Source of the DNA: an uncultured Clostridia bacterium
GTDB lineage: Bacteria; Bacillota; Clostridia; Christensenellales; UBA1242
NCBI GenBank assembly: GCA_945921465.1
Contig: CAMEKS010000002.1
Location: 189 to 64,188, forward strand
Length of the DNA stretch: 64,000 bases
Reading direction: 5' to 3'
This document shows, in pieces, positions 15,325-63,981 of this stretch. The notes under the pieces were generated by a model that saw only the letters and a program-made list of their open reading frames with translations, searched no databases and was not told where the DNA came from. The position numbers and the translations under genes are program-made. How positions within the stretch are numbered: the stretch's first letter is position 1; each line of letters starts with the position of its first letter.

Positions 15325-16007
15325 TGATAACTAACAAATTATCCAAACGAATGAAACAGATTTGCCAATTTGTAGATGGCGGAGTGGTGGCAGATATTGG
15401 CTGCGATCATGGAAAAATAATGAATAAACTACTGAAAGACGGCATCGTTAAATACGCAATTTGTAGTGATATTAGCCAACAGAGTGCTGAGAAAGCGAGA
15501 CAATTATTTGCTATTAACCTTATAGATCCATCAAGATATGAGATTATATATGGCGATGGGTTCGAAAATATAGATACTAGTAAGCTAGATTGTGCTATTA
15601 TAGCAGGGATGGGTGGTGAAGAAATTATTAAGATTATATCTGCCACTAAGTCATTGCCCAAAACTCTAATATTACAACCCCAAAAGCACGAGATAGATGT
15701 TAAGAAATATGTCTTGACTAGGGGATATGCTATAGTGGGTGATATTATTATATATGATGTAGGCAAATTCTACAACGTCATAAAATGTCAATATGTTGGC
15801 GATGTTCAGCAAATTGCAGAATTTGATATATTATTTGGCAAAGATAATTTTGCAAATAATGCTGATTTTGGTTTGTACATACAATATATGCGAAATAAAT
15901 GTTTGGCATTGGTCGGCAAAAATGCTACACTAAATGGGATGAAAGTGGAAGATTATCTGACATATATCGATTTGGCAGATAGTAAATGGAGGAAAAATAA
16001 TGAATAA
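15324..16007 (+). CDS. trmK: tRNA (adenine(22)-N(1))-methyltransferase TrmK
   Basis: LSKRMKQI...VADIGCDHG...IAGMGGEEI pattern as in B. subtilis YqfN. Sits downstream of sigA. Confidence 0.8.
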   Translation: MITNKLSKRMKQICQFVDGGVVADIGCDHGKIMNKLLKDGIVKYAICSDISQQSAEKARQLFAINLIDPSRYEIIYGDGFENIDTSKLDCAIIAGMGGEEIIKIISATKSLPKTLILQPQKHEIDVKKYVLTRGYAIVGDIIIYDVGKFYNVIKCQYVGDVQQIAEFDILFGKDNFANNADFGLYIQYMRNKCLALVGKNATLNGMKVEDYLTYIDLADSKWRKNNE

Positions 16008-16689
16008 AATAATAGAGTATCAGTCAATGGATCTAGAATTGGAGAGATTGAATAAACAAAAGGACAATCTAGAAGAATTGAAAGTAATTGACAAGATGCG
16101 TAATGTAGTCAAAGAAGCTCAAGGCAAGAGCATCAAAATGGAAAATGATGCGAAGTCCCTTCTTGATGAATACAACCAACTAAAAGCAAAATATGAGAAA
16201 CAACATAAAGAAATTCAGCGACTGACTAATCTAGATGTCAATTCTATGGACAAGAGTCAAATATATGATACATTGACCAAAATCAATTCAATTAGTTCTG
16301 AAATATTTATGATAGAACGAAATCTTAATATAATTATTAATAAGATTGGTAGAGCGCTGAAAGATTTTGAAACAAACAAAAATCAGGCTGTAATGGCAAG
16401 AAATAAGCATAAAGAAGCAAAAGATCAATATTCGGCTAAAGTTGCACAAATCGAGCCTAAAATTGCTAAACTGCAGGAAGAGTTAAAAGCAAAAGAAAAA
16501 GAATTAGATCAAACTTTATTTGCAAAATACAAAACGATGAAGAATGACGGAATTTTCCCTGTATTTGCTAAATTAACCAATGATGCTTGTGGTTATTGTC
16601 GCATAGAAGTTCCTAAGAACAAATTGGATAATCTAAAAGGCAACAATACAATTATTTGCGAGCATTGTAGGCGTATAATTTATCGCTAA
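16000..16689 (+). CDS. zinc-ribbon/coiled-coil protein (COG1579, DUF164 family)
   Basis: Long coiled coil with a C-terminal CGYC...CEHC zinc ribbon. Usual partner of trmK/nif3 loci. Confidence 0.75.
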   Translation: MNKIIEYQSMDLELERLNKQKDNLEELKVIDKMRNVVKEAQGKSIKMENDAKSLLDEYNQLKAKYEKQHKEIQRLTNLDVNSMDKSQIYDTLTKINSISSEIFMIERNLNIIINKIGRALKDFETNKNQAVMARNKHKEAKDQYSAKVAQIEPKIAKLQEELKAKEKELDQTLFAKYKTMKNDGIFPVFAKLTNDACGYCRIEVPKNKLDNLKGNNTIICEHCRRIIYR

Positions 16690-16711
16690 TTTCTTCACGG
16701 CTGATGTTGTG
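16684..16711. repeat. left copy of a 28-nt imperfect direct repeat (CGCTAATTTCTTCACGGCTGATGTTGTG)
   Basis: 24/28 identical to 17119-17146 in the same orientation. It starts in the last sense codon and stop codon of the zinc-ribbon gene. Confidence 0.85.
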
Positions 16712-17146
16712 CCGGCGTGTCTATAATTTTTGGTTAACGCAATTAATAAAATACCTATATTTCTCCACTGGCAACGGTAAAGTTGAGGTGTTCGAAATAT
16801 AGGTATTTATTTTTGCGTATATTATTGCTTTACCGACACGCTGGCAATCCACCTCAGGTGGTGCTCGAGGAGGGATAGTCAAAGTACCACGCAAGTGGAC
16901 CTTGAGATATCCCGAAGACGTAAACAATCTATATGTCAGGCGTCATTCTTGACGGCTGGGCGCACGATAATGTGCGTTGGGTGTTAACCCAACAACACAT
17001 AGATTTAATTATTTGCTCTTAGAATAATAAGGACGAGAGATAAGTATAGGGGAACAATCGCCGAGATGTGCCCGTAATGAGGGAGTGTGATTATATGCAA
17101 TATTGATAAGCTTAATGCCGCTTACTTCTTCAAGGCTGATGTAGTG
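16685..17146 (+). ncRNA. unclassified structured RNA candidate (G+C-enriched multi-helix element)
   Basis: Nested helices at 16711-16721/16835-16845, 16849-16861 and 16872-16877/16908-16913, the last enclosing a CCAC-GCAA-GUGG hairpin. Helix 16926-16936/16995-17005 closes three hairpins. Three G-U pairs favour the + strand and one favours the - strand. A TATAAT lies at 16674-16679 on +. No coding potential. Class unknown. Confidence 0.4.
17119..17146. repeat. right copy of the 28-nt imperfect direct repeat (CGCTTACTTCTTCAAGGCTGATGTAGTG)
   Basis: 24/28 identical to 16684-16711, offset 435 nt. Confidence 0.85.
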
Positions 17147-17251
17147 AATATAAAAATAGAGACAACGAGTGTGGTTATATTTTGGTTGTCGATATATTAA
17201 TTTTCTCACTATTAAAAATATTTTACATATTTTTAACTGATACAAAAATAT

Positions 17252-17280
17252 TTGACATATTTATGCCAATTTGATAGTTT
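17252..17280 (+). promoter_or_regulatory. sigma-A type promoter for the LRR surface protein gene
   Basis: TTGACA at 17252-17257, a 17-nt spacer, then extended -10 TGaTAGTTT. Confidence 0.4.
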
Positions 17281-17391
17281 AGGGGTGTATGATATTTTCT
17301 ATATATTTACCTAAATTTTTGGTTAAAAGTTAATTAAATTGTTGCTTGTATTATTCAACCTATTACTTGTTTTATTAAGGAGGAATTGGTT

Positions 17392-19047
17392 ATGTCGAAG
17401 AAAGAAAAAGTATTAATAATAGCGTTATTTGTGACTTTTTCTGTAATAATTGTTGCTTTGTCTATCACATTTGTATTAGTTTCTCGTATAGTTACTGTTG
17501 GCACCGCTATGAATATTACATTTACTTCTAAAGAAATTGCTTGTATTATTACTGGTAGCGCCAAATACAAATACTTGGGCACCGAAGATGAATATACCTA
17601 TGTAAATGTAGTAGGCACTAGTGAGACATCCATTATGTTGACATTTAAGGCTGGTGTAGAATACAATGACGTCTATACTATGGCTTTTGATAAAATAGAT
17701 ATAGGAGAGAATGGCGAGGCAGTATATGCCTTTAGTATAGAGAATACTGGCACTAAGACCATCTGCGCAAAAGTGTCTGTTGGTGAAGTCACTAATATGG
17801 TACGTAGTATAACAGCGGGTGAATATTATACTAGTACCGAGGGTGTGGGCGGATACATTATTAATGCTGGTCAGACCAGGGATTTTGAGATAAAACTGAC
17901 TGTAGACAACAAAGGGCAAAATGCCTTAGCCGCTGATGACATATCTATGGTTTTGGCAACAGAATTTGATGAATCAAATATTGCTGCAACAGTGGTTGAT
18001 CACGATGGTGCAGTGATTGCGGTAGCAGATAATACTAGCAATACTATTCAGTTGCCAGCCAACACCAAGACTACATCAATAGACGATAATGGCACAACCA
18101 AATATTTCCAAGGATATCTTAAGACTACCACTACCGCTATTAATTCTAACGATTATAACAATAATTATTCTGATTACAAATACACTGCTATAACAACATT
18201 ACCTAGCAACTTAATTCTGCCATTCCAAGAAGTAACAATTTCTGCAGGAGACATATTTACATCTTATTACGATGTAGACCCAAGCGAAATATCTAATTAC
18301 ACATTTCAAAATAACGCAACCAACAATGGCTGGTCAATAACAGGCTATTCTGGCTTTGATACAGAATTAATCTTACCAACTTTGTATCAAGGTAAATTAG
18401 TGACAGGGATAGGCAAATCTGCATTCAGGGGCTGTACCAGCTTAACCAATATAACCATCCCAAGCAGCTTAACCAGTATAGACTATAATGCATTCTCTGG
18501 CTGTACTAGCTTAACAGGAGTATATATATCTGATTTGTCTAAATGGTGCAACATATCTTTTGGTAATTATGCTGCGAATCCGTTATATTATGCACATAAT
18601 TTATATATTGATGGTGTGTTGTTGACTACGCTTACTATACCAAGCGATATCACAGAGATAAAAGACTATGCATTCAATTACTGTACCAGCTTAATCAGTA
18701 TAGAAATCCCCAATAGTGTAACCAGTATAGATGGATGGGCATTCGATGGCTGTAGCGGCTTAACCAGTATAACCATCCCAAGCAGTGTAACCAGTATAGG
18801 CGAATCTGCATTCTATGGCTGTACCAGCTTAACCAGTATATCTATCCCAAGCAGTGTAACCAGTATAGGCAGCTATGCATTCTATGGCTGCAGTAGTCTG
18901 AACGATGTTGCATTTAGTGATACTGCTTCAAAATGGTCAGTAACAAGTGGTTCAACCACTGTAGAACTGAGCGTAGGTAATAGTGGTACAAATGCTACTA
19001 ATTTGAAATCAACTTATAGTGATTATACTTGGACCAAAAAACAGTAA
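17392..19047 (+). CDS. membrane-anchored surface protein with BspA-type leucine-rich repeats
   Basis: AAGGAGG RBS 8 nt before the ATG at 17392 and an N-terminal TM anchor. The C-terminal half consists of 23-aa repeats of the form AFxGCTSLTSIxIPSSVTSIGxx. Confidence 0.8.
   Translation: MSKKEKVLIIALFVTFSVIIVALSITFVLVSRIVTVGTAMNITFTSKEIACIITGSAKYKYLGTEDEYTYVNVVGTSETSIMLTFKAGVEYNDVYTMAFDKIDIGENGEAVYAFSIENTGTKTICAKVSVGEVTNMVRSITAGEYYTSTEGVGGYIINAGQTRDFEIKLTVDNKGQNALAADDISMVLATEFDESNIAATVVDHDGAVIAVADNTSNTIQLPANTKTTSIDDNGTTKYFQGYLKTTTTAINSNDYNNNYSDYKYTAITTLPSNLILPFQEVTISAGDIFTSYYDVDPSEISNYTFQNNATNNGWSITGYSGFDTELILPTLYQGKLVTGIGKSAFRGCTSLTNITIPSSLTSIDYNAFSGCTSLTGVYISDLSKWCNISFGNYAANPLYYAHNLYIDGVLLTTLTIPSDITEIKDYAFNYCTSLISIEIPNSVTSIDGWAFDGCSGLTSITIPSSVTSIGESAFYGCTSLTSISIPSSVTSIGSYAFYGCSSLNDVAFSDTASKWSVTSGSTTVELSVGNSGTNATNLKSTYSDYTWTKKQ
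18421..18912 (+). repeat. tandem 69-bp coding repeats (LRR units)
   Basis: Units starting at 18739, 18808 and 18877 are exactly 69 nt apart and nearly identical. More diverged units lie upstream from about 18421. Confidence 0.85.
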
Positions 19048-19175
19048 TAGTTGGTATTATCAGAATTTTTGTCTGAATGCACACTAGCAAAGCGAGTGTA
19101 TATTCAAGCAAAAAAATATGTATAGACTAAGGTATTGTTGAAATTTGAATTATAGGCTACTTATTATATGAATAT

Positions 19176-19229
19176 AAAAAAACTAAGTTAAGTTAGGTCG
19201 CTATTGCCTAATTAATAACTTAGTTTTTT
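19176..19229. terminator. bidirectional rho-independent terminator between convergent genes
   Basis: A-run, then the long hairpin ACTAAGTTAAGTTAGG...CCTAATTAATAACTTAGT, then a T-run. Confidence 0.75.
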
Positions 19230-19303
19230 CTGTTATTTAAGTCGTTACAAAATAATGCTGTGAGTCCTAAGGAGTATACTTCATTTGTCTTGTTGATTGT
19301 ATA

Positions 19304-20167
19304 TTACAATTCTGGGGTAAAATGAGCAAAGACAATATTGTCAGAATAAGGGAGTATTCTCTTATATTCTTCTTGGCTATATACATTATATGCCAATATG
19401 CCTACTACTTTATTTTTCTTAATATATTTTGTAGGTAAATCCTTAGCGTTGTATGCTACAAAATCCGCTTGTGACGCTTTAAGATATTTTAATTTTTTCA
19501 ATTTTTTTGCTTTAATGTTAGCATAAGTTTTGTATCCATTGAATGCACAACTTCTAAGAATCCTTGTATACCATGGGGCATTGTCATAGAACCACATTAA
19601 TGACATTGGGTTGGCTGACATGATTGCTACCTTTCCGATCGCCTCAAATGCGTTGCAGTATTCTTCTAGTATTTTTTCTACAGCAGTTTCCACTCTGCCG
19701 GCATATGCTTCATTACATATTTCAATCACGACAGGTGTTCTGCCAGCAATAATATTTAAGACTTCTTGTAATGTTGGTATATGTTGTTTTGTGTTCTTAA
19801 CTGTTAGGTTACAGATATCCTCATACTTCAGGTTGGTTACATAGGCATTAAGGCCTGTCAATTCTCCTAATGCTTTGTGCTTAAAACAAAGAATTGTATC
19901 ATCTTTCATTGCTTGAGCGACCAAAGATATAGCATAACCTTGACTAATCAATTGCTCCAAAACTGCATTGTAATCATAATTGTGGTTTTCTAATGCTGCT
20001 ATGTCAAATTTAGCAATATACTTGTCTAACAACCATTCGTTATGCATTATGTCGAAATAGTCGTCGCTAAACTTAATATCAGACAAAGCATTTGCTTTTT
20101 TTAATGTATCAATATCTATTTTATAACTGTTCCATTTCTGATCTTCAGTCAATTGTTTGTTTGTCAT
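19304..20167 (-). CDS. glycerophosphodiester phosphodiesterase (GDPD)-like protein, divergent
   Basis: The central segment ILCFKHKALGELTG...IPTLQEVLNIIAGRTPVVIEI follows the GDPD pattern V.HD..L.R.T...IPTL.EVL....IE.K. The N-terminal HRG/E motif is not recognisable. Confidence 0.4.
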   Translation of the reverse strand: MTNKQLTEDQKWNSYKIDIDTLKKANALSDIKFSDDYFDIMHNEWLLDKYIAKFDIAALENHNYDYNAVLEQLISQGYAISLVAQAMKDDTILCFKHKALGELTGLNAYVTNLKYEDICNLTVKNTKQHIPTLQEVLNIIAGRTPVVIEICNEAYAGRVETAVEKILEEYCNAFEAIGKVAIMSANPMSLMWFYDNAPWYTRILRSCAFNGYKTYANIKAKKLKKLKYLKASQADFVAYNAKDLPTKYIKKNKVVGILAYNVYSQEEYKRILPYSDNIVFAHFTPEL

Positions 20168-20962
20168 ACTCTAACCCAAAATCCCTCAAATAGATTATGA
20201 TTATTGTCTATATCTATTGTGGGATACAATAATTCTAATTAATATCATTACCGTAGTTGTGTTGTTAAGCAGATGATTTTGGGGACAACTAGGTAATGAA
20301 ACAAAAGTGTATATATAATATAATATATATACAAGAATATATTTTATCAATATAATAATAACAAATATAACTAAAATATGCTACTTTTTTTGAGTACTTT
20401 TCTTAATTATTTATATTTTTTGCCAAATAATATGTAGATATGAGCAAATTTGTTGCTTAAATTGCCAGAAATTACCAATCATATACATTAACTAATTTGA
20501 CAGTATTAAGGTTAGTGTAATCATTTATATTCTATTTTTAGTTATTAACAAATTTGGCATACTTACTTGCCATTGGTAATTAGATAAAGTACAGTTGTAG
20601 TTGCACATATTTAATAATTTGATGTTAATAGCAAACAAAAAAATAAATTAATATTTGTTGGAGTGGATTTGTCTTTATATTTATGTCTAATATCGTTGAC
20701 AATAAGCAGTAATTAATTGTGTAATAATCAGATTAATATTTGCAAAAATAAACTCTTTGATATATACTAATCTAGTACTAAAGTGGCAATAAGATTTTTG
20801 CCACTATATAACATATATTTTTTTATCAATTGTATTATTATATTCTAAGATTGTATGTAGTAATCAGCGTTAGGGTATAATGTGGGGTAAACATTAACTT
20901 AATGTCAATTTATTTTTGATCTTAGAATTGAATAATTATAACAATAATTACATAGGTGACTA

Positions 20963-22762
20963 ATGAGTGATAGAAGTGACAAAATAAGGAATTTCTGCAT
21001 TGTAGCACATATCGACCACGGCAAAAGCACATTGGCGGATCGTTTGTTAGAATTGACTGGAACTGTGGCAAAAAGAGATATGACTGAGCAATTGCTAGAC
21101 AGTATGGAAATAGAGCGAGAGCGCGGAATTACAATCAAATTAACTCCTTCGACTATGAAATACAAATATAATGGAGAGGAATATACGCTTAATTTAATAG
21201 ACACACCAGGGCACGTTGACTTTACTTATGAGGTGTCTAGGTCTTTGGCGGCTTGTGAAGGAGCGATTCTGATAGTTGATGCTACTCAGGGGGTAGAGGC
21301 TCAGACGCTGGCGAATGTATACCTTGCATTGGATAATAATTTGGAGATTTTGCCTGTAATTAATAAGATAGATTTGCCTAGTGCAGATGTAGAGGGCACA
21401 CGCAAAGAGATAGAAGATGTTATTGGTATACCAGCGGATATTGCGCCAGCCATTAGTGCCAAAAATGGGATTAATTGCGAAGAAGTATTAAAACAAGTAA
21501 TTAAATATATCCCTGCCCCAAAAGGTAACGAGAATGAACCACTTAGGGCTTTGATATTCGATAGTTATTACGATAATTTCAAGGGAGCTGTATCTTTAGT
21601 AAGAATAGTTGACGGCAGTGTGAAGAAAGGTGATAAAATTAAATTTTTCCAAACTGGCAAGGTGTATGATGTGACCGAGGTGGGTATTTTTGAACCAAAG
21701 CCATCAGAGAAAGAATTGCTACAAATGGGTGATGTTGGTTATATTTGTGCTAGCATCAAGAATGTAAATGAGACCAAAGTTGGCGATACTATAACACTAG
21801 CAGATAGTCCAGCAAAAGAGGCATTACCTGGATACAAAGAGGCAAAACCAGTTGTATTTAGTGGCATATTCTGTGTAGATGGTGCCAAATATAATGATCT
21901 AAAGGATGCTTTGGAAAAACTAAAATTGAATGATGCTGCTCTAGAGTATGAGCCAGAGGTATCGCAAGCATTAGGATTTGGCTTTAGGTGTGGTTTTCTA
22001 GGATTGTTGCATATGGAGATAATACAAGAAAGACTAGAGCGAGAGTATAATCTAGATATTATAACGACTGCACCTACAGTTAACTACAAGATTCATAAGA
22101 CAAATGGTGAGACGATTATAGTCAGCAATCCAGCCGATTATCCATCGCCGCAATACATAGATTATGCCGAAGAACCTATGATAAGGGTGCATATGTTTAC
22201 TCCACCAGAGTATGTTGGCGAATTGATGAAGTTGTGTCAAGAAAGGCGGGGCGTGCACGAGGATTTGCAATATTTTGACGACAAGCGATGTCAATTGATA
22301 TATAAGTTGTCTCTTAATGAAATTCTATTTGATTTCTTTGATCAACTGAAATCTCGTTCGCATGGATATGCTAGCATGGATTACGAAGAAATTGGATATG
22401 AACCAAGTGAATTGGTTAAATTGGATATTTTGCTTAATGGCGAAGTCTGTGATGCTCTTAGTTTGATTGTACACAAAGACAAGGCTTATCAACGAGGACG
22501 GGCTATTGCTGAAAAGTTAAAAGAAGTTATCCCAAGGCAGTTATTCGAGATTCCTATTCAAGCTGCAGTTGGCTCCAAAGTAATTGCAAGAGAGACCGTA
22601 AAGGCATTAAGAAAGGATGTCTTAGCCAAGTGTTATGGCGGTGATGTTACTCGTAAGAAGAAACTTCTAGAGAAACAGAAAAAAGGAAAGAAGAGGATGA
22701 GACAAATTGGCTCGGTAGAAATTCCTAGTGAGGCATTTATGTCTATCCTTAAGATTGATTAA
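20963..22762 (+). CDS. lepA: translation elongation factor 4 (LepA)
   Basis: GTPase motifs [14 protein letters not shown] and NKID, plus the LepA C-terminal domain ([21 protein letters not shown]). Confidence 0.95.
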
Positions 22763-22763
22763 A

Positions 22764-23900
22764 ATGGAAACGGTAGGTATATATGTTCATTTGCCATTTT
22801 GCCTGTCTAAGTGTAAGTACTGCGATTTTAATTCCTATGCCAATATTGCCAATTTGCAACCTGCGTATATAAAAGCATTAGTTGAAGAAATCAGAACAAC
22901 TGCCATCAATTGTAAAAATGTTAATATTGATACTATATTTATAGGCGGTGGTACACCTAGTTGTATGCCATTGGGTACTATTAGTACTATACTTACAGCA
23001 ATTAGACAAAATTATAATGTTTTATCTAATGCAGAAATAACAATAGAATGTAATCCCAATTCGGTCTCATTTGACAAAGTATCAGAATGGAAAGAGTCTG
23101 GGGTTAATAGAATAAGTATTGGACTGCAGACTACTAATAAGAAATCATTGCAAGTAATTGGCAGAACTCATACTGTAGATGATTATGTTGCTGCTATCAA
23201 ATTAATACATTCTTTTGGTATTAATAATATAAACACAGATTTGATGATAGGTTTACCAAAACAACGCTCTTCTGATGTAAAATATGCTATTTTGCTTTGT
23301 AATAAGTTGATGTGTAAGCATATTAGTTGTTATTCTTTGATATTAGAAGAGAATACTCCATTATATGATATGGTACATAATGGAGAGGTAAGGTTACCAA
23401 AAGAAGAAAAGACTTTAGGAATGTATAATACCGCATACAATACACTATCGCACTTGGGATACAAAAGGTATGAAGTTAGTAATTTTGCTATTAGCGGATA
23501 CGAGTGTAAACATAACCTAAATTGTTGGTCTATGCACCAGTATTTAGGATTTGGTGCTGGCGCTCACAGTTTTTATAATAACATTAGATATAATAATATT
23601 GCTAATGTGCAAGATTATATTATGGCATCTTCTAATATTAGCGTATTAAGAGAGAATGTAGAGCCTCAAAGCCAAATTGACCTCTATAATGAGGCAATAA
23701 TGCTAGGATTGAGAAAAGCAGATGGCGTAGATATGAAGTTATTAAGTGAGTATTTGGGTGAAGATTTTGCTATAAAGATGAAAAAAGTGATTAACAAATA
23801 CATTGCATTGGGTTTGGTTGAGATAAGTCATAATTGTATTAGGGCAACGCAGAAGGGCGTTTATGTACTCAATCAAATAATTTTAGATTTTGCTATTTAG
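22764..23900 (+). CDS. hemW: radical SAM heme chaperone HemW (HemN-like)
   Basis: CLSKCKYCDF radical SAM motif, HemN C-domain and the conserved lepA-hemW order. The ATG at 22764 follows the lepA stop. Confidence 0.85.
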   Translation: METVGIYVHLPFCLSKCKYCDFNSYANIANLQPAYIKALVEEIRTTAINCKNVNIDTIFIGGGTPSCMPLGTISTILTAIRQNYNVLSNAEITIECNPNSVSFDKVSEWKESGVNRISIGLQTTNKKSLQVIGRTHTVDDYVAAIKLIHSFGINNINTDLMIGLPKQRSSDVKYAILLCNKLMCKHISCYSLILEENTPLYDMVHNGEVRLPKEEKTLGMYNTAYNTLSHLGYKRYEVSNFAISGYECKHNLNCWSMHQYLGFGAGAHSFYNNIRYNNIANVQDYIMASSNISVLRENVEPQSQIDLYNEAIMLGLRKADGVDMKLLSEYLGEDFAIKMKKVINKYIALGLVEISHNCIRATQKGVYVLNQIILDFAI

Positions 23901-24255
23901 AATTGTCGTTAATACAAAGGCAACCAAAAAAATATTCTAGGCTAGCCAAATAAATAGGAATGACCTTGTTGTTAAGTGGACTCAGTAATATAAGGCATAA
24001 TGTGAGGATATGTAATTAGAGTTGGTAAGAATCGTTATAATTTTTATTAATTATTTTAGTCGTGGATTATAACCAATATGCTTCTAATCTTTCAAGTTGG
24101 TTAAGCATTTTATCCTAAATTATTTATTATTGTTCCAACTACAGAATTATTGATACATTATGTAATTTATTTTATGATTTTTAGATTTAATATTTGATTA
24201 AATGCATAAGGTTTAATATTTTATAAATATTTGACCTTATTTTTTATTTTTAGTA

Positions 24256-24973: not shown

Positions 24974-25386
24974 TAAAGCAATATGTTAAAATAAAAGTTA
25001 ACTTAAGTAATAATTCATTATCATATTATATTTTAGAAAAGAATGCATTTATCTAAGGAGTTATTATGCCTTATTGTAAATTTGCGTTCTTTTTTTCTAA
25101 TTTAACTAAATGTTAGGAATTTTTTAAGCAAGCTTTAATTATTAATATCTATTATTTTATAGTTAATTAATACATAATAATCATTATTTTTTACTATAAT
25201 TAATATCGATAATACTGGCAATTATTTGCTATAATATAGATTATTTGGTATGATTATAGATAGAAATTATGCTTGAATTTTAATTTGTTAAGGTATTTAT
25301 ATAATGCAAATATGGCAGAAACAAATCAAGATATATTTATAAAAATATCAATTTGTTTCAAATTATGATTATTAGGAGAAAAAGTA

Positions 25387-35376: not shown

Positions 35377-38300
35377 TTACTTAGTATCTACTTTATTAAT
35401 CATAGCGTTAAGACTATCATTAATATCTTTAATTTCTTGTTTGATTAGTCTAATTTCTTTTCTAATTTCTTCTTGACGAGTATCTGATCTCTTAATCAAG
35501 TCATCATATTTCGCCATTTCTTTGTTATAATTACGCTCTATATGTTTTATCTTGATGCTTATTTGTTTTTCTTGTTTCTCAATTTCGTAAATTTGTAGAT
35601 TATATTCGGCATCTTTTTCTTTGGATGCGCTCATTTTGTTTTCTGCTATATCTTTGTTATGAACCTTACTAATTTCTACCTTTTGATTATATAAGTCCTT
35701 TAACTTAGTGCGTAAATCTGCAGTGTCCTTATCTGCAATGTCTTGTAATGCATCTAGTTTTGCCTTCTCTGCTTCTTTGTATGCATCAGTCTGAGCTTTA
35801 ATTTCATTTAATTCTGTAGTTAGATTAGCAATCAATTCTTTTCTATACGCAATCTTTTCTTTAGCATCGAATTGTTTGTCAAGAGTTTGTCTTCTATCAT
35901 AACTAGTGTCAACTTTCTTCTTGCGAGGGTGTATCTTAATCTTTTTGATAAAGTATGCAAGTATTGCCAAAATCATTGCTGCACTAGTAACTAAACTGCT
36001 GATTAGCAACCAGGCTGGGGTGGCCGAATATGGCTCGGTCTCTTCAGTGTCAGTATTGTCTTCTGTAGTATCGGCAATAGTAGTAATTGACTTAACAATG
36101 GCATCTAAATTTGCTTCTTTGTCATTGGTCATTTCAGATTCGGAACCTAACTTGACTATTTCTAATTTAGTGAAATATGCCTCACCAATAACTTTGTTAT
36201 CGTCTGTTCCTAGACCTAAATTAATCTTAACCGATGTCTCAGATGTTGGCTTAATGTATAAAATATACTTAACCAATTCATCGGCGTTAGTGTTGATATT
36301 GTAATGGCCGTCTATATGATCGCCATAAGTTATAGTGAAATACGCGCCATACTCTGTTATGTTATCTGGATTTACTAGTTTTGCTATATCTTTAGTATTG
36401 ATATACAGTGATATTTTGTACCAAGATTCAGATGCTAATGTTATGGAGTTAGTGCTACTAATACCATATTTGACATCATTAGTGTCAGCCATTACGTATC
36501 CAATATCTTCGCCATCTGTTGACATTGCAAATTCATTGCTCTTTAAAAATCCATTATATGCATATTCTATATTAGTATCAACAGTCCAGTTGGCAGAGTT
36601 GCCAAAATAGTTTTTGTTAAGATCTACTATATTTAGGTCTGTGTGATTTGCGATAAGGTTATTATATAGTTCCGAACTAATACTAGTAATACTAATATTA
36701 TCAAAATATGCATATGCATCTACATTACTTAGCGCTAACTCGATATTGCATTTATTAGAATTTAGGTTAGTGGCTATATAATAAGTGTAATGCTGCCATT
36801 CATTGTTAGTTCGGATGTCTTTAACTGCAACTATTTCACCATTATTAGAATCTAATAATTTAACCGACGCACCATTATTGTTATCTGTGCTAAAATTCTG
36901 TGTGTAGCAGTCAAATTCGAACTTGTAATAAGAATTTGCTGATAGTGAAATTGTATTAGAAGTAGTGTATTTAATATTTTGTTGTTTGCTGGTTGTACCC
37001 ATCATTAATACATTGTTACTATTGGTTACAGCATCTCCTATTTTGCCTGGGTTGCGCAAAATAGTACTATTAGTGTAATTACTATAATTATTGTTAAATA
37101 TTCTCTCGTTAGTATTAATCACGCCAGCATATACACTATTTGTTTTGCCAGTGATTGTCCAGGAAGCAGGTGATATAGGCTTGTTAGTAGATAAGCTGTC
37201 ATTTTCTATAGAGTCAAATGTACCATTACTTACCAGATTACTAGTTGATGGCACTGCAGTAAGATTAAGTGTGTTATCTGCAGATTTACCAGATGAAAAT
37301 TGGCTATAAGTGACTTCTTGCATTCTTACATCATCAAAGAATACATAATTTTCTCCACTAGCCTTGTTGTCATTGTCTTTACCTATACTAAATATTAATT
37401 GTAGGTTACTATCTCTTAGAGTGTTGCCGCTAATGTAAATGCTGTATTGTTTCCAATTGTTTGTTAGATTGCTACTTCCAGTAGGGGTGTTAGATATTGC
37501 CATAGATAGTTTAGTTGACTCTTTGTCAGAATCTAACAAAGTAGCATAACCAACAGTACTATTGCTGCAGTCCGAATATGCCCAAAAACTTAGTCTATAT
37601 AATCCATACTGCTTTATAGTAAATTTGTTGCTCTTTACACCATAATAAGTAGCGTTATTTTCGTCTGCATTGCTATACAACAATAATGCGGAGTTGTTAC
37701 TAGTGCTAGAATTATTATTTTCTGGGATATTAGGATATTTTTGGTTGCCTTTTACATATCCGCCTGCAGTTTGTGTATCAACAATGTTAACAAATACGTC
37801 ACCAGTATTTGCAGAACCTACAGTCTGCCAATCGACGAGATTGTTATCAAACGAAGCATTATCAACAATGTCGTATATATAGGAGTTGTTAAGAGAAATT
37901 AAATGTTCATTGGATTTTAATGATTCAGCCGCAGGGACATTATTATTGTACTCTGCCTCGGAATATTCTTCTATTTTAACTTGATTAAAGAATACAGCAC
38001 CTTGACACTTGGTATCTTTACTGCCCAGATATAATTTAATAGTTAAATTCTTTTCATCACTAAATGAACTGGTGTTGATGTAGAAGTTATATGTCTGCCA
38101 AGTATTTTTTGTATTAATGTTTTCAAAACTAGTTGTTGCTTCTGTATCTGATATTCCATCAATATAAATAGAAGCAAATGCATCAGACTTTCTTGTTTCA
38201 GTCTCTAATGTATCGTCATCTTCAGATTTAACATAACCAGTCGCAGTATCGTTGATTGTTTTCAGACTAACAGAGATTTTGTAGTAAGATGACTTGTTAA

Positions 38301-38802
38301 GCGTAAATTCCTTACTCTTGTACCCCATATGCCCACTGAAGTTATATGCATTAATCATTAAGTAATTATTAACGCCTTCGGTATTTTCGTCATCTATTGT
38401 AAGATTACTTGTTCTGCCAGGTGACTTAAATAATCCATAGTTTTTCCATAGATTATCCTGCAACTTGTTGTCAACAATATCAGTCTCTTCTGCATCTGAT
38501 TCGATAGTTTTTTCTATCTTATTGATATTGACAATTCCTTTTTTGTAGTTGCTAGCATTGTCACTCTCGTCGTCTGGAGTGATTGTTGTCCAACTGCTAG
38601 TAGTAGAAATGTAATTGCCACTAGTTGAATAGAAATTAGGATTAGACAATTTGTCTTCACTAATATCTTCTTTGTTAGTAGCAAATACATTCTGCACATT
38701 CTTAACAATACCAAATTTGCCAATTAGTGCGAATAGTATTATGCCTAATACTAGTGCAATTTTACACATAATTTGTTTTAATTTATCTAAACTTTTTGAC
38801 AT
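35377..38802 (-). CDS. large type-I membrane protein: signal peptide, four CBM-like beta-sandwich modules, TM helix, cytoplasmic K/E-rich coiled coil
   Basis: Signal or anchor at aa 14-40. Four roughly 170-230-aa modules each carry a N(T/N)W(Q/K)xYxxYI-type motif and end in an aromatic FFxxV/YFxxI motif. TM at about aa 929-952 (nt 35947-36018), then a heptad-rich tail of about 190 aa. Confidence 0.7.
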   Translation of the reverse strand: MSKSLDKLKQIMCKIALVLGIILFALIGKFGIVKNVQNVFATNKEDISEDKLSNPNFYSTSGNYISTTSSWTTITPDDESDNASNYKKGIVNINKIEKTIESDAEETDIVDNKLQDNLWKNYGLFKSPGRTSNLTIDDENTEGVNNYLMINAYNFSGHMGYKSKEFTLNKSSYYKISVSLKTINDTATGYVKSEDDDTLETETRKSDAFASIYIDGISDTEATTSFENINTKNTWQTYNFYINTSSFSDEKNLTIKLYLGSKDTKCQGAVFFNQVKIEEYSEAEYNNNVPAAESLKSNEHLISLNNSYIYDIVDNASFDNNLVDWQTVGSANTGDVFVNIVDTQTAGGYVKGNQKYPNIPENNNSSTSNNSALLLYSNADENNATYYGVKSNKFTIKQYGLYRLSFWAYSDCSNSTVGYATLLDSDKESTKLSMAISNTPTGSSNLTNNWKQYSIYISGNTLRDSNLQLIFSIGKDNDNKASGENYVFFDDVRMQEVTYSQFSSGKSADNTLNLTAVPSTSNLVSNGTFDSIENDSLSTNKPISPASWTITGKTNSVYAGVINTNERIFNNNYSNYTNSTILRNPGKIGDAVTNSNNVLMMGTTSKQQNIKYTTSNTISLSANSYYKFEFDCYTQNFSTDNNNGASVKLLDSNNGEIVAVKDIRTNNEWQHYTYYIATNLNSNKCNIELALSNVDAYAYFDNISITSISSELYNNLIANHTDLNIVDLNKNYFGNSANWTVDTNIEYAYNGFLKSNEFAMSTDGEDIGYVMADTNDVKYGISSTNSITLASESWYKISLYINTKDIAKLVNPDNITEYGAYFTITYGDHIDGHYNINTNADELVKYILYIKPTSETSVKINLGLGTDDNKVIGEAYFTKLEIVKLGSESEMTNDKEANLDAIVKSITTIADTTEDNTDTEETEPYSATPAWLLISSLVTSAAMILAILAYFIKKIKIHPRKKKVDTSYDRRQTLDKQFDAKEKIAYRKELIANLTTELNEIKAQTDAYKEAEKAKLDALQDIADKDTADLRTKLKDLYNQKVEISKVHNKDIAENKMSASKEKDAEYNLQIYEIEKQEKQISIKIKHIERNYNKEMAKYDDLIKRSDTRQEEIRKEIRLIKQEIKDINDSLNAMINKVDTK

Positions 38803-39920: not shown

Positions 39921-40129
39921 TATGTCAAACAATTGCCTTGAATGTAAAATTTGTGCTATTCTAATATTGTAATTAATGTATCATCTCTACAAGCGATTTA
40001 TATTTTGCAATTGGCAAAGTAATGCCCCATTAATATAATAAACTTGCAGCGTAATGATATTTTATTTGCAGATAGTAATTATGGCCATTATAATAGTTAG
40101 TACATAATTACATAATTATGGAGGGAACA

Positions 40130-40297
40130 ATGAGAGTTAATCAAGACAAATGTATTGGCTGCGGTACATGTGCTGGTGTGTGCCCAGTAGGTGCAATTTC
40201 TTTGGATACTGGCAAGGCATTCATTAACAAAGATATTTGTATTAGTTGTGGCGCTTGTGCTAGTGTATGTCCAGTAGAGGCAATTGATGCAGAATAA
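40130..40297 (+). CDS. fdx: 2[4Fe-4S] clostridial-type ferredoxin (55 aa, absent from the ORF track)
   Basis: My translation is MRVNQDKCIGCGTCAGVCPVGAISLDTGKAFINKDICISCGACASVCPVEAIDAE. It has two CxxCxxCxxxCP motifs. GGAGGG RBS at 40120-40125 and a terminator directly after. Confidence 0.9.
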   Translation: MRVNQDKCIGCGTCAGVCPVGAISLDTGKAFINKDICISCGACASVCPVEAIDAE

Positions 40298-40300
40298 TAT

Positions 40301-49920: not shown

Positions 49921-49961
49921 TATATTAATTCTACATTTTTGAAAATAAATCAAAAAATATG

Positions 49962-49990
49962 TTGACAATGGCGGCTGCAAGTGTTAATAT
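49962..49990 (+). promoter_or_regulatory. sigma-A type promoter of the infC-rpmI-rplT operon
   Basis: TTGACA at 49962-49967, a 17-nt spacer, then extended -10 TGtTAATAT ending at 49990. Confidence 0.6.
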
Positions 49991-50123
49991 CTATATGTTT
50001 GAAAAAGTAGAAGTTCACTTCTCACCCTGCAGAGCCCCTTGGCATCTAGTAGTGGTTTATTAAAAAACATTCTTTTGGTTTTTTTAATAAAATGAGTAAG
50101 TGGGCTATTAAGTCCACTTTTTT
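49991..50123 (+). promoter_or_regulatory. infC operon leader with intrinsic attenuator (L20-leader-like)
   Basis: Leader of about 130 nt ending in AGTGGGCT-ATTA-AGTCCACT followed by a T-run at 50099-50123, just before the infC RBS. Firmicute infC-rpmI-rplT operons are attenuated by L20. Confidence 0.5.
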
Positions 50124-50147
50124 AATTTGTATTGGAGGTACACGGTT

Positions 50148-50663
50148 ATTAAAAATTTACTTATTAATGAGCAAATTAATGCTAAGACGGTTAGACTGAT
50201 TGGGTCTGACGGTTCGCAATTGGGGGTCGTAAGCATAGAGGAGGCCCTTCACCAAGCGGAAATGGACGAATTAGACTTAGTACTTATTTCGCCAGATGCA
50301 AATCCACCTGTTTGTCGTGTTATGGACTATGGTAAGCATAAGTTCGATATGATGAAAAAGGAAAAGGAAGCAAAGAAAAAACAAAAAGTCGCTGAAGTAA
50401 AAGGTATGCAGTTGAGTATGAATATTGCAGATAATGACCTTGCGTTTAAGGCTAAGAATGTAAGGAAATTTTTAGAAGCAGGCGACAAAGTAAAGGTTAG
50501 TCTAAGGATGTTCGGTAGACAATTGGCAAATCCTCAAATGGGAATGCCAATTATGGAGAAGTTCTATGAAATGTTGCAAGACGTATGTATTATGACCAAC
50601 AAACCAGAAATTAATGGTAGACAAATTATAATGATACTGGCACCTATTAATACTAAGAAATAA
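50148..50663 (+). CDS. infC: translation initiation factor IF-3 (probable AUU start)
   Basis: IKNLLINEQINAKTVRLIGSDGSQLGV N-terminus. GGAGG at 50134-50138 lies 9 nt before the ATT at 50148. The TTG at 50127 overlaps the terminator and has no RBS. Confidence 0.85.
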   Translation: MKNLLINEQINAKTVRLIGSDGSQLGVVSIEEALHQAEMDELDLVLISPDANPPVCRVMDYGKHKFDMMKKEKEAKKKQKVAEVKGMQLSMNIADNDLAFKAKNVRKFLEAGDKVKVSLRMFGRQLANPQMGMPIMEKFYEMLQDVCIMTNKPEINGRQIIMILAPINTKK

Positions 50664-50705
50664 TTTTTCAATTAATTAAATTTACTTAAAAAGGAGAAAA
50701 AAAGA

Positions 50706-50900
50706 ATGCCTAAGCAAAAAACACATTCAGGCGCTAAAAAGAGATTTACTCTTAAGAAGTCTGGAGTAATCAAGAGAAACAAACAGAACAGGAGACACAT
50801 CTTGACAAAGAAGTCTCAAGACAGAAAACGAGGACTTAGAAAGGCAACTTATGTATCTAAGGCTGACTCTAAGAACGTAAAAGGACTATTAGTTGGTTAA
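50706..50900 (+). CDS. rpmI: 50S ribosomal protein L35
   Basis: [14 protein letters not shown] signature, 64 aa. Confidence 0.95.
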
Positions 50901-50933
50901 AAAATTAACCAAGTAAAAGAGGAGGAATAGATA

Positions 50934-51293
50934 ATGAGAATTAAAAGAGCTGTTAATGCATTAAAGAAGAGAAGAAAAGTATTAAAATCTGCCAAAGGTT
51001 ATTGGGGCGCTCGTAGCAAATTATACAGAGTTGCTAATCAAGCAGTTATGAAGAGTGGTCAATATGCTTATACTGGCCGTAGATTGAAGAAAAGAGACTT
51101 CCGTCAATTATGGATTGCCAGAATTAATGCTGGTTGCAGAATGAATGATATGTCTTATAGTCAATTTATGCATGGTCTAAAGATTGCTAATATTAATCTT
51201 AACCGTAAGGTTTTAGCTGATTTGGCCGCTACTGACGAGAAGGCTTTTGCAGAGTTAGTAGCTACTGCTAAGGCTGCATTGAAGAATGCGTAA
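50934..51293 (+). CDS. rplT: 50S ribosomal protein L20
   Basis: [18 protein letters not shown]...[19 protein letters not shown] signature. Confidence 0.95.
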
Positions 51294-63528: not shown

Positions 63529-63981
63529 ATGACAAAAATAATAGTATGTTCTGATTCTCATGGCAAAAAAGACAGAATTAATAGACTGGCAAAAGAATAT
63601 GACTATAACTATTTTTTCTTTCTAGGTGATGGGATGAGTGATATTGGCGATTGGGACTTGTTAGATAATGTTGAGTGTGTTAGAGGCAATTGTGACTATT
63701 TTAGTACTGAACAATATGATAGAATATTAGAAATAGAAGACAAACGAGTGCTGCTAACACATGGCAATAATTATGGAGTTAAAGGCGGAATTGGGGCTTT
63801 GGCAAAATATGCAAAGGCTAACAAAATTGACATAGCCTTATTTGGTCATACACATCGATTTACGAAAGAGGAAGTAGATGGTGTAATGCTATTTAATCCG
63901 GGTTCTGTCAAGAACGGCTCTGCGGCAATTTTAACAATAGATAAGAGTGGTGTTAATTTTGAACAAATTGTAGCTGATTAA
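63529..63981 (+). CDS. YfcE/MJ0936 family metallophosphoesterase
   Basis: CSDSHG, LGDG, GNCD, THGN and GHTH motifs. GAGGAG RBS 9 nt before the ATG at 63529. Confidence 0.85.
   Translation: MTKIIVCSDSHGKKDRINRLAKEYDYNYFFFLGDGMSDIGDWDLLDNVECVRGNCDYFSTEQYDRILEIEDKRVLLTHGNNYGVKGGIGALAKYAKANKIDIALFGHTHRFTKEEVDGVMLFNPGSVKNGSAAILTIDKSGVNFEQIVAD

Follow-up and report, generated by a model that had tools for sequence, protein, structure and literature searches.

The 64-kb window analysed here, the whole stretch of DNA read from contig CAMEKS010000002.1 of an uncultured Clostridia bacterium, contains a G+C-rich block in the 696-nt gap (16690–17385) between the zinc-ribbon gene COG1579 and a gene for a BspA-type leucine-rich repeat (LRR) protein (17386–19047). 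This block is a real, unusual and tightly folded feature of a single genome. We give about even chances to the reading that it is a lineage-specific, non-coding insertion of approximately 435 bp, which is bounded by a 28-nt repeat and carries a structured module of about 300 nt. The evidence for this reading comes from the direct repeats at the two ends of the block, from the empty site in relatives, and from the fold between the repeats.

A direct repeat around the block and an empty site in relatives

The COG1579 gene closes the dnaG-sigA-trmK-COG1579 operon and ends with a stop codon at 16687–16689. Its open reading frame (ORF) upstream of the block is complete, and the C-terminus of the protein agrees with that of the relatives. 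A repeat search revealed an imperfect 28-nt direct repeat on the + strand, which the original prediction of an RNA-like element at this site had overlooked. Copy 1 (CGCTAATTTCTTCACGGCTGATGTTGTG, 16684–16711) overlaps the end of the COG1579 coding sequence, including its final sense codon and its stop codon (CGC-TAA), and copy 2 (CGCTTACTTCTTCAAGGCTGATGTAGTG) is located at 17119–17146. The two copies agree at 24 of 28 positions (blastn self-match, E 0.002). The 21-nt core of the repeat has two matches in the 64 kb, exactly at these sites, and none of 100 shuffled sequences gave two. A third, partial copy of 13 nt (TTCTTGACGGCTG, 16946–16958, 12/13 positions) lies inside a hairpin of the module, hairpin D1, with a rough chance estimate of ~0.06. 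The 28-nt repeat was not found a third time beyond the LRR gene, where an A+T-rich match of 12 nt is all that appears, and blastn self-comparison found no second copy of the block within the window.

We also considered further readings of these repeats, which were rejected. An internal tandem duplication with modules starting with TTCTTSAMGGCTG was not significant beyond the 13-mer (55 of 500 shuffles were as good). Extending the repeat to approximately 100 nt, as a duplicated gene end plus terminator, gave a suggestive alignment that was not significant (shuffles, 283/2000 upstream and 162/2000 downstream). The string CUGAUGU in the repeats resembles part of a hammerhead ribozyme, and neither a helix II, nor GAAA, nor an Rfam ribozyme match accompanies it. 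For a specific pairing partner of the repeats, RNAduplex returned many weak alternatives, none of them outstanding.

The comparison set consisted of 28 GTDB loci of COG1579 homologues and four further contigs (L075–L078). The best COG1579 protein matches, at 59–66% identity, are from uncultured 'Christensenella' or Clostridiales genomes of gut and rumen samples. Flanks could be read in 14 syntenic relatives, namely L001–L012 (39–66% amino acid identity), L077 and L078; the contig of L076 stops 162 nt past the COG1579 gene. The site is empty in all 14, where COG1579 is followed by intrinsic-terminator hairpins and then by the next gene. The gap to that gene measures 38–219 nt in L001–L012; in L077 and L078 it is about 95 nt. 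All 14 lack both the block and the LRR gene. In most of these relatives, the next gene is a convergent homologue (284–348 aa) of the gene at 19304–20167 of the window, followed by lepA and hemW.

The original prediction had suggested collecting homologous spacers from relatives. Neither blastn nor nhmmer detected any similarity to the block in the 28 GTDB loci, in which Rfam models had no match either, and cmsearch with a covariance model built from 16847–17010 (R1) matched only itself across the loci of the relatives. The only other public instance is on contig JAIFIH010000523.1 of NCBI assembly GCA_019973165.1 (L075), a second assembly of this organism, which is 100% identical over 15505–24047 of the window. 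Because this sole other instance is identical, there is no sequence variation from which covariation could be judged. Upstream of 15505, inside trmK, L075 diverges wholly: its TrmK has 270 aa and another N-terminus, and a PucR-type regulator and an EF-G-like gene take the place of sigA and dnaG. The divergence is either a chimeric join in one of the assemblies or a real rearrangement or duplication.

Larger collections were searched as well. Blastn of the block against phage and plasmid collections returned nothing. Pattern scans of viral contigs gave a single chance match, inside a 2867-aa ORF of a giant phage, and a metagenome scan with the twice-repeated 13-mer gave 45 chance matches with no wider similarity; these collection scans need exact patterns, and absence from them is weak evidence of absence. 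As far as these sequences go, the block appears to be specific to its lineage and known from one organism. Direct repeats flank it, one of them lying over the 3′ end of the target gene, and the site is empty in the syntenic relatives; this repeat-bounded anatomy, together with the absence from relatives, points to an insertion.

The composition of the block sets it apart from the rest of the window. Within the gap, G+C peaks at 0.47 in a 200-nt window, whereas the other non-coding gaps peak at 0.15–0.36 and the genome mean is 0.32. With a G+C content of 0.42–0.47, the block is the only non-coding spacer block of the window above 0.36, in line with the original prediction, which had seen it as richer in G+C than any other spacer. 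The other gap block near that level (0.41, 40100–40300) owes its composition to a 59-aa ferredoxin ORF at 40118–40297 on the + strand. This ORF, which stands alone in a 702-nt gap, encodes two CxxCxxCxxxCP motifs of a 2x[4Fe-4S] ferredoxin. In the block itself, the claim that it holds no credible ORF is confirmed. The longest ORFs have 68–78 aa on the − strand and none of them is credible, G+C by codon position is flat (0.44/0.39/0.43) without codon periodicity, and no protein homologue was found for the most open frames.

The folded module and its strand

Folding was carried out with ViennaRNA on both strands, with z-scores calculated against shuffled sequences. The region 16685–17200 folds better than its shuffles (z −6.1 on the + strand, −7.8 on the − strand). 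For 16700–16999 the z-score is −8.5, compared with a mean of −0.38 (standard deviation 1.1, minimum −4.1) in 106 background windows of 300 nt. All helices up to 17005 that were listed in the original prediction were recovered on both strands. Its structured tail to 17146 was not, since 17006–17146 has z-scores of +0.75 (+) and +0.40 (−). The supported structure is thus about 300 nt long (16706–17005, z −5.7 to −8.6) and not about 450 nt. Four independent units with near-perfect Watson-Crick pairing make it up: one hairpin of 137 nt, a pair of smaller hairpins and one four-way junction.

Hairpin A (16710–16846, + strand) is a near-perfect long hairpin of 137 nt with a minimum free energy (MFE) of −57.2 kcal/mol. 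A G+C-rich closing helix of 12 bp (16710–16721/16835–16846) leads into an A+T-rich arm, which contains a perfect 15-bp helix (16749–16763/16794–16808) and has its tip at 16766–16790. Over 16706–16850 the z-score is −8.61, none of 200 shuffles was equally stable, and the pairs are identical on both strands. Hairpin B (16849–16861, +), CCACC-UCA-GGUGG, appears in the MFE and centroid structures of both strands. In hairpin C (16872–16913, +), the helix GGGAUA/UAUCCC (16872–16877/16908–16913) closes an irregular stem with the cap CCAC-GCAA-GUGG. Junction D (16926–17005, +) has a closing helix at 16926–16936/16995–17005, of which ten of the 11 positions are Watson-Crick pairs and one is A·C, around three hairpins at 16937–16958, 16960–16977 and 16978–16991. 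The segment 16847–17010, covering hairpins B and C and the junction, has an MFE of −63.0 and a centroid energy of −62.6 kcal/mol (z −5.69).

Downstream of the junction, region E (17006–17118, +) has a G+C content of approximately 0.35–0.43 and holds neither an ORF nor significant structure. The strings UAUAGGGGAAC and GCUUAA fall in this region, as does the beginning of GCCGCUUAC (17117–17125). On the far side of repeat copy 2, hairpin T (17156–17195, +) has the core GACAAC/GUUGUC (pairs 17161–17166/17185–17190) followed by AUAUAUUAAUUUUCUC, and is weak and terminator-like.

The fold says little about the strand. In 15 helices with 104 opposed positions, we counted 97 Watson-Crick pairs, three G·U pairs on the + strand, three A·C oppositions on the + strand (G·U on the − strand) and one other. 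The G–U pairs, which had been read as favouring the + strand, are therefore balanced by as many on the other strand. This near-intact and strand-symmetric pairing fits a young element without strand-specific wear. On the other hand, the predicted energy is lower on the + strand (−168.8 versus −147.2 kcal/mol), and the loop of hairpin C reads GCAA, a GNRA tetraloop, on the + strand only and UUGC on the − strand. We take the GCAA loop as a weak hint; besides these two features, the co-orientation with the flanking genes is the only other indication for the + strand.

Signals for transcription were scanned around the block. The TATAAT at 16674–16679 had been proposed as a promoter for the + strand; the promoter scan calls no site there, and the hexamer is common in the 64 kb (115 copies on the + strand, 144 on the − strand). 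A terminator scan of 16400–17500 found no terminator-like site, so that hairpin T is not called, nor is any terminator before the block or before the LRR gene. In the relatives, an intrinsic terminator stands directly behind the stop codon, whereas none precedes the insert here. We infer from this that the + strand of the module is probably transcribed when the polymerase reads through from the sigA operon.

A proposed insertion, or a possible new class of structured RNA

The following sequence of events would account for the locus. A non-coding segment of about 435 bp would have entered immediately after the stop codon of COG1579. The 28-nt duplication would stem from recombination at the gene's 3′ end, with a second target copy either brought along or created by the incoming DNA; without the segment and one repeat copy, only a short spacer would again follow the stop codon, like that of the relatives. 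The module (16706–17005), followed by about 110 nt of unstructured sequence, would then be part of a + strand read-through transcript of the operon. It may serve there as a stable, structured extension of the 3′ end, or it may be processed into an RNA of its own; in either case it would be a passenger of the insertion and not a housekeeping RNA.

Insertions of integrase type at gene 3′ ends share several features with the block: an imperfect direct repeat of approximately 28 bp spans the end of the target gene, the DNA between the copies is missing in relatives, and the target remains intact. Reduced derivatives of such insertions are known too, for example the cis-mobilisable elements that ICEs such as ICESt1/ICESt3 leave behind, with direct repeats of about 27 bp at the 3′ end of fda. 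Unlike such elements, the block is 435 bp long and gene-less, with no recombinase or relaxase in it, no recombinase was found within the 64 kb, and no related element was found. Its content is a compact folded module instead of typical DNA flanking attachment (att) sites. Miniature inverted-repeat transposable elements (MITEs), repetitive extragenic palindromes and bacterial interspersed mosaic elements (REP/BIME), and palindromes derived from IS200/IS605 resemble the block in being small, non-coding, rich in hairpins and located behind genes, and hairpin A has inverted arms of 17 nt. However, the termini of the block are direct repeats, no short target duplication flanks hairpin A, and the block is single-copy in the 64 kb, whereas all these kinds of element are normally repeated within a genome. 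We rejected a MITE or another repeated palindromic element, as terminal inverted repeats, a flanking duplication and multiple copies in the 64 kb are all missing.

Several observations weigh against a repeat-bounded insertion. No recombinase, transposase, reverse transcriptase or TnpB/IscB was found by Pfam in the element or among the approximately 45 ORFs of at least 100 aa in the 64 kb, and these ORFs look like housekeeping genes. The block has neither a second copy in the window nor related sequence in the phage, plasmid, viral or metagenome scans. The 28-nt repeat is far longer than ordinary target duplications made by transposases. Its four mismatches exclude a recent event, whereas the helices are near-intact; intact helices beside a repeat that has diverged by 14% are the best argument for selection on the fold, which would favour a functional RNA. 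Moreover, the + strand and the transcription of the module are themselves points that we infer.

The main alternative is one to which we grant a modest chance. According to it, the block is a genuine, host-beneficial large structured non-coding RNA (ncRNA) of an undescribed class, present as an independent gene or as an RNA processed from a 3′ untranslated region, and the repeats at its two ends would be processing or protein-binding sites and no scars of an insertion. Searches for known families are in line with such an RNA. With Rfam 15 at gathering scores, nothing matched in the whole 64-kb window, and at E ≤ 10 with permissive filters no credible family was obtained for slices of 851 nt (16550–17400) and 308 nt (16843–17150). 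These slices gave only chance-level fragments of microRNA, snoRNA and DUF3800-VI models (E 0.3–7.6), far under the gathering scores. Among the families named for comparison in the original prediction, the group I intron (RF00028 and subtypes) has no match at E ≤ 10, and the block follows a complete COG1579 ORF; the cyclic di-GMP (c-di-GMP)-I and -II riboswitches have no match at E ≤ 10; and ROOL, GOLLD, OLE, HEARO and raiA have no covariance-model match. ARAGORN finds neither a tRNA nor a tmRNA in the window.

No Rfam family is found in the window despite an infC-rplT operon (50127–51293), and the gap before that operon (49921–50126) has a slightly raised G+C content of 0.30. In many Firmicutes, the infC-rplT operon is preceded by an L20 leader. 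Models of known RNAs may have low sensitivity for this lineage.

A new RNA class is also favoured by the composition of the block, the sole G+C-rich non-coding block in an A+T-rich window, and by its multi-helix fold, which is well defined, includes both a GNRA loop and a four-way junction, and has near-intact helices although the flanking repeat has diverged. G+C-rich blocks in A+T-rich genomes are a signature by which structured RNAs have been sought (PMC6429828, PMC8632094, PMC11109978). On the other hand, the block is an orphan, absent from all relatives examined and from all collections searched, and its only other instance offers zero covariation. The wobble pairs are strand-symmetric, the 3′ third is unstructured, and no credible promoter or terminator was found. 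The block resembles the ornate ncRNAs (ROOL, GOLLD, OLE, raiA and HEARO) in being a long, G+C-rich, ORF-free block rich in hairpins and junctions in low-G+C Clostridia, possibly tied to acquired DNA. Unlike the block, these RNAs are defined by many covarying homologues, while the block has no homologue in the collections searched and only about 300 nt of supported structure. An undescribed large RNA, the fallback of the original prediction, is possible: the block folds and no Rfam 15 family matches it, but it is an orphan of one organism.

The insertion and a new RNA of the host are not mutually exclusive. In a bolder reading, the block would be the first known member of a hitherto undescribed class of compact structured RNAs, with a core of about 300 nt (the long hairpin, the two smaller ones and the four-way junction). 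Such an RNA would be a mobile gene that spreads as a self-contained, gene-less insertion with repeat boundaries, entering operons at their 3′ ends, and its relatives would be too rare or too divergent for the searches made. We hold this reading to be rather unlikely.

The LRR gene, a decayed gene and RNase P

The downstream LRR gene suggests a further alternative, in which the block is a long cis-regulatory leader of this gene, riboswitch-like or subject to processing, that acts through read-through and was acquired together with it. Genes for surface proteins of Clostridia can have long structured leaders; an example from C. difficile pairs the c-di-GMP-II riboswitch with a group I ribozyme. 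All relatives lack the block as well as the LRR gene, and no terminator is called between the two. However, about 240 nt of A+T-rich sequence (G+C 0.22) with promoter-like repeats separate the block from the ribosome-binding site (~17378). Meanwhile, the 28-nt repeat bounds the block alone, the LRR gene may have a 12-nt boundary repeat of its own, and no riboswitch or group I model matches. We consider a leader improbable.

The putative boundary repeat of the LRR gene was found by local alignment. The string TGAATATAAAAA at 17144–17155 (+) recurs exactly at 19168–19179, with a rough chance estimate of ~0.01. The pair brackets the LRR gene together with its promoter region, and the second copy lies directly before a bidirectional terminator (~19180–19230). 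This arrangement suggests that the LRR gene may be a second insertion next to the first, with the original terminator of the operon now at ~19180–19230. The N-terminal 345 aa of the LRR protein (17386–18420) comprise a signal or transmembrane segment and an unassigned domain, and match only themselves among 5.8 billion proteins. Because this part has no homologues, the LRR gene offers no second locus for comparison. Upstream of the gene, we notice an A+T-rich segment (17214–17312) with three ATATTT(T/G)ACATATTT-like repeats of 19–21 nt and overlapping inverted repeats, which may be promoter or operator repeats.

The wider window represents the core chromosome of a spore-forming, low-G+C (0.32) member of the Clostridia. 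Apart from dnaG-sigA-trmK-COG1579, it contains iscR-nifS-nifU, spoIIGA-sigE, ftsK, lepA-hemW, mraZ-rsmH-PBP, infC-rplT, topoisomerase subunits and der. Long spacers (200–800 nt) with a G+C content of 0.16–0.24 are unusually numerous between the housekeeping genes (e.g. 2081–2725, 20168–20962 and 24974–25386). A 1141-aa ORF at 35377–38802 on the − strand has no Pfam domain at E ≤ 0.001.

A decayed remnant of a foreign protein-coding gene, in which the hairpins would be incidental, is very improbable. Such a remnant could explain why frame 0 of the minus strand (16660–17260), the most open frame, has three stops in about 200 codons where about 12 are expected from composition, and why the G+C content of the block lies in or above the coding range of the genome. 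The scarcity of stops is perhaps a by-product of palindromic composition. Against a remnant stand the lack of codon-position periodicity and the folding z-scores (−5.7 to −8.6), which would be unexpected. In addition, a search of 5.8 billion proteins gave no homologue for the translation of frame 0, and the stretch in frame 1 of the + strand has none among 1.84 billion representative proteins.

The original prediction had placed first a very aberrant or rearranged RNase P RNA, on account of several lookalike strings and of the position. The size class and the G+C enrichment of the block agree with this proposal, and in Borrelia burgdorferi a COG1579 homologue has rnpB downstream of it (PMC3372290). 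The statement that rnpB often follows COG1579 genes was thus a fair lead that holds for some bacteria; it fails in this clade, where no RNase P model reached its gathering score within 3 kb of the COG1579 homologue at any of the 28 loci. With RNase P RNA (RF00010, type A; RF00011, type B), the block shares the appearance of a G+C-rich multi-helix block of several hundred nucleotides behind COG1579, including a four-way junction and a GNRA-capped hairpin. Four short strings of the block may resemble type-B RNase P RNA, in which they would occur in the same order.

Unlike RNase P RNA, the block matches neither RF00010 nor RF00011, even at E ≤ 10, and the defining features are absent. Conserved region I (CR-I, GAGGAAAGUCC), which forms the 5′ strand of helix P4, occurs three times in the window at up to two mismatches against a chance expectation of 6.0, and not at all in 16600–17300; its absence had been reported correctly in the original prediction. 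The same is true of a complementary helix P1, which is missing because the ends of the block are direct and not complementary repeats. Conserved region V (CR-V, ACAGAA..CGGCUUA) is absent from the element at up to three mismatches. For GCCGCUUAC (17117–17125), no P4 partner AAGCGGC is present, and the only near match, AGGCGUC, is buried in hairpin D1. Two of the four lookalike strings (UAUAGGGGAAC and GCUUAC) fall in the part without significant structure, the 3′ third of the block being unstructured, and in the 14 syntenic relatives the gap holds only terminator hairpins. Elsewhere in the window, the string ACAGAACCCGGATTA at 63894–63908 (−) agrees with 14 of 15 positions of the CR-V consensus; this agreement is due to chance, as the string is part of a metallophosphoesterase-like coding sequence and the region gives no RNase P match. 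Every defining feature tested speaks against RNase P, membership in this family is rejected, and an aberrant rnpB in the position behind COG1579 is barely credible.

At present, the value of these results is mainly negative and practical: the block is no hidden RNase P RNA, and lookalike strings occur in it without the defining features. A single sequence is insufficient ground to claim a new RNA class. If the module is indeed transcribed and selected, it would be a new and apparently mobile structured RNA from a poorly sampled lineage of gut or rumen-type Clostridia, in which Rfam is blank across 64 kb. The locus would then provide a clean case of an RNA gene that was inserted where the sigA operon ends.

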